From NCBI GenBank assembly GCA_048941285.1, contig JBHLNS010000051.1, positions 1 through 20,695 on the forward strand: 20,695 nucleotides of DNA. Direction: 5' to 3'. Shown here one piece after another: positions 4,770 through 19,812 of this stretch. Position 1 is the first letter of the stretch. Every line of letters starts with the position of its first letter. The notes beneath the pieces are model-generated. The model saw only the letters and a list, made by a program, of their open reading frames with translations, was not told the origin of the DNA and searched no databases. The DNA comes from Promethearchaeota archaeon. Lineage in GTDB: Archaea > Asgardarchaeota > Lokiarchaeia > Sigyniarchaeales > SOKP01. Made by a program: the position numbers and the translations under genes.

Positions 4770-5291
4770 GTGCCAGCTAAGTATATATTAAAAATTCTCA
4801 CAGCAGGAGATGGAGGGGTAGGTAAAACCACACTCTTACGTAGATTCGTTGAAGGAACCTTTAGTGCTGAAACAAAGATGACTATTGGCGTGGAATTCCA
4901 TTTAAAAGAACTTGATCTAGATGGAAAGCATTGCACTCTCCAGCTCTGGGATTTTGGTGGCCAAGAGAGATTTCGTTTCTTATTGGAAAGTTACGTGCTT
5001 GGAGCAAAAGGAGCATTGTTAATGTTTGACCTTACAAGGATAACAACTCTTGAAAATCTTCAGAATTGGATTGATATTGTCAGGAAAGGTGATCCTAATC
5101 TCCCAGTTCTCTTTTTAGGCACGAAATTAGATTTAGAAAATGATATAATGGTTGATGATAATTATGCAATGTCATTTCTTAATGATTTTAATCTGATTGA
5201 TTACTTAAAAATCTCTTCGAAAACGGGTGAAAATGTTAATAGGGCTTTTGATATTTTAACAAAAACTATAATAGATAAGCAATCTACTTGA
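4770..5291 (+). CDS. Rab-like small GTPase (Ras superfamily)
   Basis: G1 GDGGVGKT, G2 TIGVEF, G3 WDFGGQE, G4 variant TKLD, G5 SSK. GTG start; no C-terminal prenylation Cys. Confidence 0.93.
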   Translation: MPAKYILKILTAGDGGVGKTTLLRRFVEGTFSAETKMTIGVEFHLKELDLDGKHCTLQLWDFGGQERFRFLLESYVLGAKGALLMFDLTRITTLENLQNWIDIVRKGDPNLPVLFLGTKLDLENDIMVDDNYAMSFLNDFNLIDYLKISSKTGENVNRAFDILTKTIIDKQST

Positions 5292-5770
5292 AATTTATCC
5301 ATTATGATACAGATTTAATTCTAAAATTGAACCCCAATTTAAAAATAGTAATAATCGATTCTAATTTCATCTTACTCCCTTTTCAGTTTAAAATTGATTA
5401 TTTTAATGAAATTCGTTCGATTCTTGAAGGTTCTTTAAGATTTATAATATTTCAACAAATATTAAACGAATTAGAATCAAAAAAAAGACGAGAATCAAAT
5501 TCTATTAATTTTTCAATACTATTAGAATCAGGTTTGCTCTATGTAGAAAATAATAGAAGTAAATATGATATACAAGTTTTGGATGATGTTAAAAATAAGA
5601 ATGAAACGACTGATGCTTTTTTATTAAAGAAGTTATTAGACTTTAAAGATCAAGGCAATATAGTATTTCTAGCAACAAACGATTCAGCTTTACGTAAGAA
5701 GGCAAAAATAAACCATATTAGTACAATTTTTCTAAGACAGAAAAAATATTTGTCAATTGAAAGGACTTAA
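5288..5770 (+). CDS. PIN-domain ribonuclease, Fcf1/Utp24-like archaeal family
   Basis: Motifs VIIDSNF, ILNEL, TDAFLL, LATNDSALRKKA and IFLRQKKYL supply the conserved PIN acidic residues. The TTG start overlaps the GTPase stop (TTGA); the start could be slightly later. Confidence 0.85.
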   Translation: MKFIHYDTDLILKLNPNLKIVIIDSNFILLPFQFKIDYFNEIRSILEGSLRFIIFQQILNELESKKRRESNSINFSILLESGLLYVENNRSKYDIQVLDDVKNKNETTDAFLLKKLLDFKDQGNIVFLATNDSALRKKAKINHISTIFLRQKKYLSIERT

Positions 5771-5879
5771 AAAAATATTAATAAAACTATAATATAATGA
5801 TTGCATTTTTAAATATAATCCTAATTTTAAAATCCTAATAAAACTGCTACTTTTATTAATAAATTCCTCTTCTAAGTGT

Positions 5880-6416
5880 ATGATTATGTACAAATCTCAA
5901 AAATCGAAGTCGATCTTACTCAAGGTCATCACTTGTGGTGAAGGTGGAGTGGGTAAAACTACACTTCTTTTTAGGTACATAGAAGGGAGATTTCTCACTG
6001 AAACTTTGATGACTATTGGCGTGCAATTTCACTTGAAAGAACTTGAGATAGAAGGGAAAAAAATTTTACTTCAGGTATGGGATTTTGGAGGACAGGAACA
6101 TTTTAGACCTCTATTAAAGAGTTATGCGAGAGGTGCGAGAGGTGCTCTATTACTTTTTGATCTCACCAGACCATCAAGTTTAGATCGAATAAATCAATGG
6201 GTAAACATTTGTAGAGAAGATAATCCTGATAATCCTATCCTATTCATAGGAACAAAATTAGACTTGAAAGACCAAATCACAATTGAGGATGAGATTGCAT
6301 TACAACTTAAGAAGGAGTTTGGTTTTTTTGATTATTTAAAAGTATCATCAAAAACTGGGGAGAATGTCCATTTGGCTTTTGAGTTATTAGCAAGAGAACT
6401 TGTAAAAAAAATTTAA
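5880..6416 (+). CDS. Rab-like small GTPase, paralog of 4770-5291
   Basis: G1 GEGGVGKT, G2 TIGVQF, G3 WDFGGQE, G4 TKLD, G5 SSK. Confidence 0.93.
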   Translation: MIMYKSQKSKSILLKVITCGEGGVGKTTLLFRYIEGRFLTETLMTIGVQFHLKELEIEGKKILLQVWDFGGQEHFRPLLKSYARGARGALLLFDLTRPSSLDRINQWVNICREDNPDNPILFIGTKLDLKDQITIEDEIALQLKKEFGFFDYLKVSSKTGENVHLAFELLARELVKKI

Positions 6417-14926: not shown

Positions 14927-15136
14927 TTAATCTTCGTCCTCGTCTCCCATCAATGATTCTATTTTTTCTTCAAGTTTTTCAATTTTTTCTTCAAGTTGTT
15001 CGATTTTTTTATTAGTTTCACATGTAGCGCATCCATCATCTTCGTCACACTGAGGGAGGGTGTCACACACTTCTTGAAGTTCATCCATTTCTTCTAATAA
15101 TTTATCGACTTGATCTTGCAATTCATCAATACTCAA
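14927..15136 (-). CDS. Small acidic coiled-coil protein with a central C-x5-C-x5-C-x2-C motif
   Basis: AGGTG RBS precedes the TTG start. Heptad-like helices flank CDTLPQCDEDDGCATC, and the ORF fills an otherwise empty gap. Confidence 0.75.
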   Translation of the reverse strand: MSIDELQDQVDKLLEEMDELQEVCDTLPQCDEDDGCATCETNKKIEQLEEKIEKLEEKIESLMGDEDED

Positions 15137-16348: not shown

Positions 16349-17014
16349 TTATTGAGATTTTTTAATATTTTTTTTATATAATTTAACCGATTTTTTAATC
16401 AATTCAAGGGTCTCTTTTGGAACATCTTTCTCGGGTATTTCAAGATCTTGTGTCATAAAATCCAAGCCGACTGTTAATTTGTAATCTTCTACAAAACTTT
16501 TATTTGTGAATGTTCTAATTAAGGAAGATTTTCCTACAGCTGCAGCACCAGTCAGTAATATTTTAAATCTAAACTGATTCGTATCTTTTACTTCTCCTAA
16601 TCTTGCTTTGAAATCTAATAATGCCGCTATCGTTAATCGATAAAATAAGTTTCGAATGTTCTTATTTTCTAATGCAGAGGTTTCTATATATTCAAATAAA
16701 TAATATTGATTGAGTTTTTGAATTATTTTTTCTCTAGGGATTGTTTCACCAATATCCTTGATAAGATCGTTTTTATTTCCAACTAAAAAGATCGGTATAT
16801 TTCCAGAACGCACTCTGATTTCATTAAAATATTGATCTATCTCATCAAAAGTATTGGGACGGGTTAAATCAAAAACTAAACCAACAGCTGCTAAACCTTT
16901 GAAGAAATCAGTTTTAAAAAAATTGAATCGTTCTTGGCCTCCAGTATCCCAAAGAGATAAAATTATGTTTAACATATTAAAATTTAATATTTTATTTGCC
17001 CTTATAATTCCCAA
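16349..17014 (-). CDS. Circularly permuted Rab-like small GTPase (G3-G4-G5-G1-G2)
   Basis: WDTGGQERF (G3) lies near the N-terminus, then GNKND (G4) and ETSAL (G5), followed by FKILLTGAAAVGKSSL (G1) and YKLTVGLDF (G2). The start is TTG 17014 or ATG 16975, with an in-frame stop just upstream. Confidence 0.85.
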   Translation of the reverse strand: MGIIRANKILNFNMLNIILSLWDTGGQERFNFFKTDFFKGLAAVGLVFDLTRPNTFDEIDQYFNEIRVRSGNIPIFLVGNKNDLIKDIGETIPREKIIQKLNQYYLFEYIETSALENKNIRNLFYRLTIAALLDFKARLGEVKDTNQFRFKILLTGAAAVGKSSLIRTFTNKSFVEDYKLTVGLDFMTQDLEIPEKDVPKETLELIKKSVKLYKKNIKKSQ

Positions 17015-17706
17015 GTGGCAATATATTCATCCAAAATTCTTTGTATATTGTTAAATCCCATAGTTCTATAGAATTCTTTAAGAGTTTTTTTATCAAGGTT
17101 CCACTGTGATCTTCGTTGATAAGTGTTAATACCGTCATTATCTAACAATAAAAAATCAACAATTTTGAATAAAGATTTCGGCAAAAATTTACCAAAAAAT
17201 ATTACTATTTTAAATAATTTATCACGAGCACAAACTTCTTCAGGCCTAATAACATATGGTTCACATAAAATAATCTTTTGAGAAATTTTTTTGGCAATAT
17301 TAATTAAATCGACATGTCTTGGATAAATATGATGCAAAATATCGCATATTACAATTACATCTTTTTTTTCTCCTTGATAATTTTGAAAATCAAAAATATT
17401 TTTCCTATGGATGATAATTTTTTTCAATCTTATATTTCTTTTTTTCAATTCTTTGGTTTTTATACGTTTCAAAAAACGATGATTTAAATCAACACCTTCA
17501 TACTCAATTGCCGGATGTAAAAAACGCATTAAATATCCAGTACCACATGGTAGATCTAAGATTCTTTTGGGTCCTTTACCGATAATAGATGCAATAGTAT
17601 GAAATTTTGTATCTTGATCATATAATCTACGAGTTACAGCGTTATAAAGCCAACCACTGCGATAGAGTAAACTTTTAAAACCAGAAAGCTTGTTTTTTCT
17701 AATCAT
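17002..17706 (-). CDS. Class I SAM-dependent methyltransferase
   Basis: Motif I ILDLPCGTG, then GVDLN, DVIVICDILHH and ILCEP. Confidence 0.88.
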   Translation of the reverse strand: MIRKNKLSGFKSLLYRSGWLYNAVTRRLYDQDTKFHTIASIIGKGPKRILDLPCGTGYLMRFLHPAIEYEGVDLNHRFLKRIKTKELKKRNIRLKKIIIHRKNIFDFQNYQGEKKDVIVICDILHHIYPRHVDLINIAKKISQKIILCEPYVIRPEEVCARDKLFKIVIFFGKFLPKSLFKIVDFLLLDNDGINTYQRRSQWNLDKKTLKEFYRTMGFNNIQRILDEYIATWEL

Positions 17707-17769: not shown

Positions 17770-19812
17770 TTAAGGAGGCGAGAGCATATTCATTTTATTT
17801 TCAATATCCGCATTTAGCTCTTTGATTTTTTTATCTAAATTAATAAGTTCTTTATTAATTTCTTCGAACCTACTCTCTTGATCGTTTAATTTTTTTATGT
17901 ATCGTTCTTTTAACGAGACAGATTGGCTATCTTCTCCCAGCACTGTAATATTTTCTCTAAGTCTTACTTGTTCATCTGTCATTGAATCTCTTTCTTCATT
18001 TAGTTTATCTTCTTTAGACTTCAAATCATTTAAATTTTGAATTAAACCAGCAATTTCTTTTAATTTTGTCTCTAGTTCGGGGTCAATAAACTTCTTTCTT
18101 ACATAAAAACCAACTCTTTTTAGAAGATCTTCCTTACTATAATTCCAAAGATAATTACTTGAGTAATTTTCTTTTTGTTCTTTTAATTTAAACACTACCG
18201 CATCTTTCGCTTTTAAGGTTAATTTAAATCGCCAATAATTCGGTGTCTCCTCTGGTTTGACAGGTTTTTCTATAATCTTATAATCATAGGTTTTGGGATG
18301 ATCAAGGTATAATTCCTTTTCTTCATCTGTTTTATTGTTTATTTTATAAGTAGTCGTCATATTAGTATAATAGTATTCATAAGAATAACCGCTTCCAAAC
18401 GTAACTCTATGCACACTTAAATTCTCAGATTTTTGCTCATTGTTAATAATAACAGCTTGCTCTATTGCGTAGTTTAATAATCTTGTATCTTCTTTATTTA
18501 AGAAGGGAATAATAGCTTCACCAGCAAGATTATCATCATAAATAATTGTTACAGGCCCTCTTTCAAGTGTCAAATTAGTATTATTTGTAACTTCTAAACA
18601 TGCATTAGGATTTTTTTCTTGCTCATTTTTATTATAAAGCAAAACTTTCTTAGCTTTTATTGATTCTGTGAGAATGGGCACAAGAGCAGATTGTTTTCGT
18701 TTAATAGTCACAGGATTTGAAATATTATATTCAAAGAGTTCTCCTAAATCTTTTGTTTGAGTTTTAACTTGAGATTTTACTTTATCATAGATTTCTGTGT
18801 CTGACATAATACTTTGCATGCGCCCAAATCCACCAGCAGGAGCTGCCGGAGCCGGGATTCCAGATCTAAGAGCTTTAGCTTTTTTCATTGCTGCAGGTCT
18901 AGCTTCCATTTCTGCCATTGCATAATCCTTAAATTTTTCCATTTCTAATCCTTCTTCTATCTCCGTAGGTCTCGCACTTAAAACTTTTGGAGGTTGAATA
19001 ACAGGCCTTTGAATAAATATAGGTCTGTAGAATTCATAAACAAAAGAAACTGGCATACCCGCAACTAAGGACAATTCTATATCTTCCCAATCTTGATTAG
19101 TAGTGTTTTCAATAAGACTCCAACCAGATAATAGACATTTTTGCTCTAATGCTTGTTGTTTACTCATGATCAACCGATATGAAGTTTTCCAGATTGGACT
19201 CTCACGAATATAAGATACATAAATATTTCTTTCAGCAGTATCATCTCCACCAGATTCACAGTTTACTACAATCTTCTTTGCATCTTTTTTTTTTCCAGCG
19301 ATGACGGTATCTAAGAAAAATTTCAAATCTTTTTTAATTTCTTCATTTAATATTTCAAGAGATTTAATTTCTGAGAAGTTATATTTAGCTATCATTCCAT
19401 CTTCTTGTAATATAATTAATAATTTCTCGATGATTTTTTCATCTTTAATCAACTTCTCGAAATATTCAATCCCCATTATCTTTCCCGTAACTTTTTTAGC
19501 GCCACCAATTGTTATGCTTACACCAGCTCCTTTAATCTGAGTTATAAGAGAAGAAAAAGAATCTTGATCAGGTATATTTAACATTATAGATCTTAATAAT
19601 TGATTAGTTTCTAAAGCAGCGTCGTAAGATATAGATGAGATATATCCTTTCTCACTTGTATCTAAGACAAAAAGCGATTTTAATATATCATTCATTTCAT
19701 CTATTTTAAATTCAAGTTCAAATTTGCCCGTACCTTTTAAAATACCCTCAAGGATATAATAAGATACGCCATGTTTGAAAATTATTACTTTTTTAACTTT
19801 TAATTTCGACAT
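17770..19812 (-). CDS. DUF4139-like protein with a C-terminal coiled coil
   Basis: Motifs VIIFKHGVSY, MNDILKSL, PIWKTSYRL, IENTTNQDW..IELSLVAG.P, DLGELFEY and LERGPVT. The last ~100 aa are heptad-rich. Confidence 0.8.
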   Translation of the reverse strand: MSKLKVKKVIIFKHGVSYYILEGILKGTGKFELEFKIDEMNDILKSLFVLDTSEKGYISSISYDAALETNQLLRSIMLNIPDQDSFSSLITQIKGAGVSITIGGAKKVTGKIMGIEYFEKLIKDEKIIEKLLIILQEDGMIAKYNFSEIKSLEILNEEIKKDLKFFLDTVIAGKKKDAKKIVVNCESGGDDTAERNIYVSYIRESPIWKTSYRLIMSKQQALEQKCLLSGWSLIENTTNQDWEDIELSLVAGMPVSFVYEFYRPIFIQRPVIQPPKVLSARPTEIEEGLEMEKFKDYAMAEMEARPAAMKKAKALRSGIPAPAAPAGGFGRMQSIMSDTEIYDKVKSQVKTQTKDLGELFEYNISNPVTIKRKQSALVPILTESIKAKKVLLYNKNEQEKNPNACLEVTNNTNLTLERGPVTIIYDDNLAGEAIIPFLNKEDTRLLNYAIEQAVIINNEQKSENLSVHRVTFGSGYSYEYYYTNMTTTYKINNKTDEEKELYLDHPKTYDYKIIEKPVKPEETPNYWRFKLTLKAKDAVVFKLKEQKENYSSNYLWNYSKEDLLKRVGFYVRKKFIDPELETKLKEIAGLIQNLNDLKSKEDKLNEERDSMTDEQVRLRENITVLGEDSQSVSLKERYIKKLNDQESRFEEINKELINLDKKIKELNADIENKMNMLSPP

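Follow-up and report, generated by a model that had tools for sequence, protein, structure and literature searches.

A conserved, circularly permuted Rab-like small GTPase from one order of Asgard archaea

We analysed a 20,695-nt stretch of DNA (hereafter, the window), comprising positions 1 to 20,695 of contig JBHLNS010000051.1 in the genome assembly of a Promethearchaeota archaeon (GCA_048941285.1; Asgardarchaeota, Lokiarchaeia, Sigyniarchaeales in GTDB). On its minus strand, at 16349..17014, the window carries an open reading frame (ORF) for a small GTPase whose conserved motifs stand in a rotated order. Read from its TTG codon, this ORF encodes 221 amino acids (aa), in agreement with an earlier description of the window made from the letters alone (hereafter, the sequence-only reading). 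The residue numbers used here refer to the 208-aa form that starts at ATG 16975, unless ORF numbering is stated. Upstream of the GTPase gene lie a methyltransferase-like gene and the gene of a 680-aa protein; on its other side are the gene of a small coiled-coil protein, p69, and three acyl-CoA dehydrogenase-like genes (Table 1).

Table 1. Features of the permuted GTPase locus, with positions in the window
Feature	Position	Strand	Remarks
Probable coding region of the permuted Rab-like GTPase, 208 aa	16349..16975	-	ATG 16975..16973, stop 16351..16349; start by homology
13-codon extension of the mechanical ORF (TTG 17014), probably untranslated	16976..17014	-	Overlaps the methyltransferase 3' end by 13 nt
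G3 / start of switch II, D10-T-G-G-Q14	16934..16948	-	Directly after the N-terminal beta3; D10, G13, Q14 invariant in 49 sequences
G4, N67-K-N-D70 (guanine specificity)	16766..16777	-	K68, D70 invariant; N67 at least 90% conserved
G5, T99-S100-A101	16673..16681	-	S100 invariant; T99, A101 at least 90% conserved
Linker from alpha5 to beta1, residues 121-133, D-F-K-A-R-L-G-E-V-K-D-T-N	16577..16615	-	D121, R125, G127 at least 90% conserved, both subclades
G1 / P-loop, G143-A-A-A-V-G-K-S150	16526..16549	-	G143, V147, G148, K149 invariant; matched to the P-loop region of Rab11
G2 / switch I, Y165-K-L-T168-V-G170, Rab-like Y-x-x-T-[IV]-G	16466..16483	-	Y165, T168 invariant; 162-169 of low pLDDT (predicted local distance difference test)
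beta2, residues 171-180, last strand of the chain, predicted beside the N-terminal beta3	16436..16465	-	Strand in the model; aligns to Rab11 beta2
C-terminal amphipathic cationic helix, residues 187-207	16355..16417	-	pLDDT by block 95/94/86; P186, E188 at least 90% conserved
Class I SAM (S-adenosylmethionine)-dependent methyltransferase-like gene, upstream	17002..17706	-	Pfam Methyltransf_12/25/11; context only
Gene of the 680-aa protein	17770..19812	-	C-terminal coiled-coil hairpin; 119 listed of 1514 homologues at 75-90% identity
p69, small acidic coiled-coil protein, 69 aa, four cysteines	14927-15136	-	Adjoins the variable slot in every relative examined
Three acyl-CoA dehydrogenase-like paralogues, 427, 432 and 428 aa	10579-14850		The two nearest the GTPase locus (432, 428) recur family-wide, 1-3 copies per locus

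All five G motifs can be recognized in the sequence and its alignments, in the order G3-G4-G5-G1-G2; the order G1-G2-G3-G4-G5 that is canonical for the Ras superfamily does not apply, and the protein is a permuted derivative of the superfamily fold. The Pfam Ras profile (PF00071) matches the ORF in two swapped stretches (E 3.8e-35; 121.3 bits against a cut-off of 21.6), the better of which places ORF residues 7-128 on profile positions 38-157 of 162. Since this match starts only at profile position 38, the protein begins mid-domain. The NCBIfam model TIGR00231 (small_GTP) is matched significantly as well (57.1 bits against a cut-off of 42.5). The break point emerged from a sequence search of the PDB, in which residues 134-185 align to residues 5-56 of Plasmodium Rab11 (3bfk_A), that is, to its beta1, P-loop, alpha1, switch I and beta2, and residues 6-114 align to Rab11 59-165, from beta3 to alpha5. 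The two stretches are swapped and flank Rab11 residues 57-58, and the break therefore lies at the turn between beta2 and beta3. The top 60 PDB matches were all Rabs, both for the single sequence and for the family profile, in the latter case including one from Thorarchaeota. Each match of the profile consisted of two separate stretches or of one half of the G domain, and none of its top 60 contained a single stretch spanning both halves.

The two halves are joined by the conserved linker LDFKARLGEVKDTNQ; across 49 permuted sequences, L119, D121, R125 and G127 each reach a conservation of at least 90%. No G1 motif was found upstream of the ORF, where the frame meets a stop a few codons before the TTG and the DNA is filled by the methyltransferase gene. 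These results bear out three claims of the sequence-only reading: that five intact G motifs are rotated, with G3 first and G1 and G2 last; that a short linker leads from the C-terminal helix alpha5 to beta1; and that no N-terminal G1 is missing.

Comparing the locus with its orthologues indicated that the first 13 codons of the mechanical ORF are very probably untranslated, and that translation most likely starts at ATG 16975 and gives a protein of 208 aa. The majority of aligned homologues (15/18) begin at the Met that matches M14 of the ORF, or one residue later, and in 100 of the 120 database homologues the W-D motif has its Trp at position 8 or 9. Of 30 permuted loci, 22 have an in-frame stop no more than 17 codons before the S in SLWD; the N-terminal extension is open in only 8 of the 30, where its partial conservation falls together with the 3' end of the methyltransferase gene that overlaps it. 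In addition, 14 of 18 aligned orthologous upstream regions carry a purine-rich, AGG-containing motif resembling a Shine-Dalgarno sequence 7-12 nt before the start (read by eye in alignment A4), the start codon itself varying between ATG, TTG and GTG among orthologues. The segment that the sequence-only reading had taken for an N-terminal duplicate of beta2, left behind by tandem duplication and trimming, lies upstream of the conserved start and is interrupted by stops in most orthologues, and this part of its account falls away.

Searching for homologues revealed that proteins with the same motif order are abundant. A total of 1449 homologous proteins were retrieved at E<=1e-3, and the best 120 of them are 70-93% identical to the query over 81-100% of its length. 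In 119 of these 120, G3 precedes G1; the exception, P0077, has a garbled N-terminus. Within the window's GTDB genus, orthologues are 60-93% identical and one intact copy was found in 49 of 53 genomes, the four genomes without one being 58-88% complete. The locus is independently supported, both by a copy on a closed 2.27-Mb chromosome (L024) and by a 1088-nt contig from another study, which spans 16374-17461 and differs there by 23 substitutions, free of gaps and joints. The ratio of nonsynonymous to synonymous substitution rates (dN/dS) was 0.039-0.207 in 23 of 27 orthologue comparisons (dS could not be solved in the remaining 4), although these ratios are only rough because dS is saturated, at 0.9-3.4. 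The gene is thus real and under strong purifying selection, and is neither an artefact nor a remnant.

The sequence-only reading had itself raised the possibility that the ORF is the decayed remnant of a tandem double GTPase, and one may add to this an assembly or gene-calling artefact that has no function of its own. Tandem GTPases do exist: the permuted GTPase aligns colinearly across the domain junction of such proteins at 32-33% identity, and the window's own genome encodes a 661-aa protein (G000:C59:205-2190, minus strand; L035) in which a degenerate G domain that has lost its P-loop and G3 is followed by an intact Ras-like G domain. By eye, the N-terminal region of this protein resembles a CDC48 N-domain. 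However, no evidence of decay from a tandem gene was found at the permuted locus. The low dN/dS, the invariance of the catalytic residues, the intact copies throughout the genus, on the closed chromosome and on the indel-free contig, and the position of G3 before G1 in nearly all of the best homologues make a remnant or artefact scarcely credible. Tandem GTPases are also doubtful as direct ancestors, their identity across the junction being only 32-33% and their linker lacking the conserved R-L-G-E motif. Among the 87 GTPase matches in the window's genome, the window's gene is the one that is permuted; colinear partial matches elsewhere in that genome, on contigs C59 and C33, were rejected as further permuted GTPases and correspond to the tandem GTPase and to fusions of roadblock-like and GTPase domains.

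An alignment of 49 permuted proteins, reaching down to 31% identity, showed D10, G13, Q14, K68, D70, S100, G143, G148, K149 and T168 to be invariant. This pattern bears on whether the protein could be a pseudo-switch, a scaffold that binds nucleotide but hydrolyses it slowly or not at all and that has a structural role, for example as a membrane-anchored subunit. The consensus of the P-loop is GAAAVGKS, with Ala at both positions equivalent to Ras G12 and G13, and no conserved neighbour resembling a GTPase-activating protein or a guanine-nucleotide exchange factor accompanies the gene, two points in favour of such a scaffold. Yet neither the catalytic Gln, Q14, nor the switch I Thr, T168, varies in either subclade of the family (see below), which is hard to explain without hydrolysis-linked switching, and we regard a pseudo-switch as unlikely.

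To delimit the family, 1.84 billion cluster representatives were searched exhaustively with HMMER, which returned 13 full-length proteins matching colinearly from their first residues. Twelve of these are 271-755 aa long and 41-61% identical to the query, and the thirteenth, P0207, is 243 aa long and 34% identical. Pfam Ras falls into two stretches in all 13, with the better stretch placing the N-terminus on profile positions 41-50 of 162. A scan of genomes grouped by GTDB found matches at E<=1e-35 in 67 of 400 genomes of the phylum. By family, 63 of 134 genomes of f1 and 3 of 14 of f3, which belongs to the same order, have a match, with none in the remaining families; in the window's genus (g1) the figure is 49 of 53. 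This confinement to two families of one order marks the GTPase as a lineage-specific invention and not as an ancestor of the eukaryotic machinery.

Gene copies of 75-90% identity also occur in metagenome-assembled genomes (L001-L026) to which NCBI attaches the names Thor-, Odin-, Hod-, Hermod- and Heimdall-archaeota. As the GTPase is restricted to two families of one order by GTDB, these phylum labels overstate its range and look unreliable.

In an unrooted tree obtained by a quick search, for which 24 permuted proteins were re-ordered to the canonical order and combined with 46 canonical GTPases, all 23 archaeal permuted proteins sampled group in a single clade (support of 99 in the SH-like approximate likelihood ratio test, SH-aLRT), divided into two subclades supported at 98 each. 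The twenty-fourth, P0207, stems from the transcriptome of a foraminiferan, Bolivina argentea (EukProt), is Rab7-like, has the order G3-G4-G5-G1-G2 and falls outside the archaeal clade; it represents either a separate permutation event or an assembly artefact. Judged by their sequences, the archaeal permuted GTPases are Rab-like and not RAS-like.

We found no description of a permuted Asgard GTPase in the literature, the supplements of papers lying outside this search, and the string 'permut' is absent from the main texts of both Tran et al. 2024 and the Vargova et al. preprint. A Protein Atlas search with the GTPase returned generic small-GTPase clusters alone. The permuted family may have escaped surveys in which 'incomplete' or 'divergent' sequences are discarded, and filtering of this kind is described in the Vargova et al. 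preprint.

The fold of the 208-aa protein was predicted with AlphaFold2 from the 49-sequence alignment. The resulting monomer is a closed G domain (mean pLDDT 87.2, predicted template-modelling score (pTM) 0.85) that holds all six strands and five helices, plus a helix at residues 187-207. Its N-terminal part consists of beta3 (2-11), beta4 (28-36), alpha3 (40-57), beta5 (62-67), alpha4 (69-90), beta6 (95-98) and alpha5 (107-120), and its C-terminal part of a short strand (129-131), beta1 (134-143), alpha1 (149-156), beta2 (171-180) and the final helix, the linker being modelled as coil plus the short strand. Low confidence is restricted to the two switch regions, with residues 162-169 as expected for an empty switch I. 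Comparisons with solved structures agreed with this arrangement. Foldseek and VIA-align superposed residues 1-125 on Rab, Rho and Ras structures at a root-mean-square deviation (rmsd) of 1.1-2.0, the first half fitting Rab6, H-Ras and Rab8 in Foldseek at 1.1-1.9 over about 100-118 columns. VIA-align, which searched 48,161 representative chains and listed 50 matches, gave two patterns: canonical small GTPases fit residues 1-125 (Z 12-13), and YlqF, YqeH, YjeQ/RsgA and pre-60S factors fit residues 14-179 (Z 9-12). These are the patterns expected if G4-G5-G1-G2 is colinear with the known permuted GTPases and G3 stands at the opposite end. None of the 50 listed matches, all of them to representatives, was a solved structure covering residues 1-180 colinearly.

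The closed monomer also bears on the proposal of the sequence-only reading that the protein has uncoupled switches or assembles as a domain-swapping oligomer, beta2 of one chain completing the sheet of another. Such an obligate dimer or oligomer would suit a break placed exactly in the beta2-beta3 hairpin, and free termini at the edge of a sheet can favour swapping. Anand and colleagues, as quoted by Elias and Novotny (2008, Biol Direct 3:21, PMC2430557) in the part of their paper drawn on here, had argued, before cpRAS was described, that a break in this hairpin should impair or even preclude folding. However, in the predicted monomer beta2 (171-180) and beta3 (2-11) are both confident and the chain closes into a normal G-domain sheet; no swap is therefore needed, and the proposal of uncoupled switches or swapping is not supported. 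Furthermore, cpRAS, the eukaryotic GTPase domain described in the same part of PMC2430557, has the same break and sits within single large polypeptides. Obligate swapping thus appears improbable. A prediction of the homodimer (two 208-aa copies with alignment A2, GTP and Mg) returned a score of 0.00 and a mark of 0.42, and is evidence neither way.

Beyond beta2 the chain continues through a conserved P-x-E into the helix at residues 187-207. With a hydrophobic moment of 0.58, this helix exceeds every other part of the protein (mean 0.20), and its net charge is +6; the window's GTPase then ends in KKNIKKSQ, with no C-terminal cysteine. In many relatives the chain runs further. Among the 120 close homologues, 13 (268-277 aa) extend into one hydrophobic helix at the C-terminus, and the 29 proteins encoded at the loci comprise 18 short forms, 9 with one C-terminal transmembrane (TM) helix and 2 long ones that bear membrane helices. 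Outside the window's genus, most relatives have a spacer and then one C-terminal TM helix, whereas only a minority do so within the genus. The tail is present in all four scanned orthologues of at most 65% identity (L023, L031-L033), and among early-branching members P0122 and P0125, the first-branching rows of subclade A, as well as P0121, at the base of the next node, carry it, as does P0111. The sister subclade consists of long forms of 428-755 aa (P0129, P0131, P0132, P0138 and P0142; L034:64-2200; L030:6424-7730), which add a proline-rich linker, a conserved domain that has no Pfam match and contains motifs such as F-P-G-C and P-L-D-A-R-K-D, and one or two membrane helices. Because tails occur in divergent orthologues and in early-branching members, we infer that anchoring by way of the chain leaving beta2 is ancestral, and that the window's 208-aa copy has lost the anchor and kept the helix.

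Taken together, we consider it probable that the gene encodes a functional, monomeric, circularly permuted Rab-like GTPase which was ancestrally tail-anchored at its interswitch end, the window's copy being a short form. The chain runs from beta3 and switch II (G3) through G4, G5 and alpha5, across the conserved 13-residue linker, to beta1, G1, alpha1, G2 and beta2, and leaves the G domain at the place normally occupied by the turn of the beta2-beta3 hairpin, passing into the cationic amphipathic helix. Binding and hydrolysis of GTP would be expected as in Rab proteins. The interswitch hairpin would be open, with the N-terminus of beta3 free and beta2 tied to the membrane-proximal helix or anchor, such that the G domain would sit on the membrane by its interswitch end. 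In the short form, the helix may bind the membrane peripherally or pack on the G domain. A GTP-driven movement of switch I and beta2 could in this way be passed to the anchor, a coupling that would be analogous to the interswitch toggle of Arf proteins and wired differently.

Several observations weigh against this reading. Alanines at the Ras G12 and G13 positions could slow hydrolysis. The window's own upstream region (16976-17001) carries no AGG-containing motif, which is degenerate there, and the start at ATG 16975 is therefore assigned by homology alone. The polarity by which the anchor was lost is drawn from an unrooted quick tree and from ORF lengths. Finally, no conserved partner was found among the neighbours of the GTPase gene.

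Close relatives share a gene order of a thioredoxin-like gene, the 680-aa protein gene, the methyltransferase gene, the permuted GTPase gene, an HD-domain gene on the opposite strand, p69 and the acyl-CoA dehydrogenase paralogues. In 18 of the 25 loci that hold upstream DNA, the methyltransferase gene separates the gene of the 680-aa protein from that of the GTPase. The 680-aa gene adjoins the GTPase in 23 of 25 close loci and in only 3 of 8 more distant ones; among five distant GTPase-bearing genomes it was not found in three, and a fourth has a 55-residue remnant only. Conversely, the 680-aa gene is common in genera that are poor in the GTPase (37/42 genomes against 1/42 in g12, 6/7 against 0/7 in g13, and 4/6 against 0/6 in g5), and in these genera it directly abuts p69, with no methyltransferase, GTPase or HD gene between. 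The block of methyltransferase, GTPase and HD genes therefore looks like a variable insert, and the 680-aa protein was rejected as a dedicated partner since it is not co-distributed with the GTPase.

The 680-aa protein, which has tandem paralogues in families f3 and f4 of the order, gave no Pfam match at E<=0.01, with weak DUF4139/MuiA hints from Pfam DUF4139 (E 0.022), TIGR02231 (0.049) and, for DUF4139, the Atlas (0.99). Its AlphaFold model was poor (pLDDT 57.7, pTM 0.32) and a profile search against the PDB returned nothing; a Sec23/24- or VWA-like module, tried as a candidate, was rejected on the absence of a Pfam match at that threshold and on the empty PDB profile search. Elsewhere in the window, at 4770-6416 on the plus strand, a PIN-domain gene lies between two genes for canonical Ras-like GTPases (173 and 178 aa), the first of which overlaps it by 4 nt.

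The permuted GTPase can be compared with four known systems. YlqF, YjeQ and YqeH are TRAFAC GTPases of ribosome assembly and do not belong to the Ras superfamily. Like the archaeal protein they are permuted P-loop GTPases, colinear with residues 14-179 of the model (1puj_A, Z 11.5 over 139 residues; 3h2y_A, Z 11.9 over 143). However, in the YRG family, comprising YlqF-YawG, YjeQ (RsgA) and YqeH, the order is G4-G5-G1-G2-G3 and the break lies between strand 3 and helix 2, according to the sections of PMC2430557 cited here, whereas the window's GTPase has G3 first. The NCBIfam models for YlqF and RsgA accordingly score far below their cut-offs on the window's protein (16.3 against 208.2 and 15.1 against 483).

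The closest precedent in architecture is cpRAS. It is defined, in the sections of Elias and Novotny's paper used here, by the order G3-G4-G5-G1-G2, in which strands 2 and 3 are no longer connected and strand 1, helix 1 and strand 2 directly follow helix 5, and all its G motifs are intact. The sequence-only reading had assigned to cpRAS the order G4-G5-G1-G2-G3, which is mistaken, and had held that the break seen here differs from those of the known permuted GTPases, which is correct with respect to YRG, YlqF and YjeQ and incorrect with respect to cpRAS, where the break is the same. Since order and break recur in cpRAS as it is described there, the motif order is not unprecedented.

The identity of order and break could reflect a single permutation event common to the archaeal family and to cpRAS, by way of an Asgard forerunner or of a transferred copy, the more so as Asgard archaea are the closest prokaryotic relatives of eukaryotes. 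Yet the sections of PMC2430557 cited here place cpRAS in the RAS family proper, with a 'TIE' motif in G2, call it eukaryote-specific, and locate it in VWA (Sec23/24 trunk) proteins of 840-970 aa or in one protein of 3933 aa, preceded by 40-66 residues; VWA/Sec23-24 trunk or alpha-2-macroglobulin-like regions mark its host proteins. The archaeal GTPase, by contrast, has K-L-T-V-G in its G2, with T-V-G a feature of the family, and finds Rabs as its top PDB matches; it starts at beta3, stands alone and ends in an amphipathic helix or a TM anchor. The archaeal proteins either stand alone, with 208-316 aa, or are longer and carry a C-terminal membrane domain of an unrelated kind, and in the 13 permuted members the sole Pfam families are those of P-loop GTPases or NTPases, with no VWA/Sec23-24 trunk or alpha-2-macroglobulin family among them. 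In addition, restriction to two families of one order disfavours a presence in the Asgard ancestor of eukaryotes, and the permuted eukaryotic protein P0207, which is not a CPRas, falls elsewhere in the tree. We therefore judge a shared origin very unlikely; the archaeal permutation is probably independent of that in cpRAS.

What is new is thus a stand-alone, Rab-like archaeal clade with a membrane anchor after beta2, built on a motif order already known from cpRAS and probably arrived at independently. To our knowledge, cpRAS proteins have never been characterised. A small, stand-alone and highly conserved archaeal form would offer a much easier object for testing folding, cycling and the effect of an opened interswitch. 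With it, the many and still little explored small GTPases of Asgard archaea, which are discussed with regard to eukaryotic membrane trafficking, gain a member that is anchored in the membrane.

Canonical Rabs (Rab7, Rab11 and the Thorarchaeota Rab 7ezb) are the best matches overall, at 23-35% identity and an rmsd of 1.1-2.0 over about 100-125 residues. Common to both are Y-x-x-T-[IV]-G-x-D-F in G2 and Q-E-R-F in switch II, motifs that we take to be Rab family (RabF) signatures. The Rabs differ in running from G1 to G5, and in how they end. Eukaryotic Rabs attach to membranes by a prenylated C-terminus after helix 5, whereas the C-terminus or anchor of the permuted GTPase follows beta2, and its C-terminal cysteine is missing.

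Several database records name permuted GTPases 'ADP-ribosylation factor-like protein'. The proteins do share with Arf the G-G of G3 (W-D-x-G-G-Q), and by analogy they may resemble it in having an amphipathic helix near the interswitch and in associating with membranes at that end of the G domain. However, Pfam Arf scores 32.4 bits on the window's protein, against 121.3 for Ras. Arf proteins keep an N-terminal helix at the interswitch end, whereas the permuted GTPase starts at beta3, with no N-terminal helix, and carries its helix C-terminally, on beta2. It is possible, although doubtful on present evidence, that a second, independent split between beta2 and beta3 gave rise to a previously undescribed archaeal class of tail-anchored GTPases, in which switch I would be coupled mechanically to the anchor, in a geometry foreign to canonical Ras, Rab and Arf proteins.

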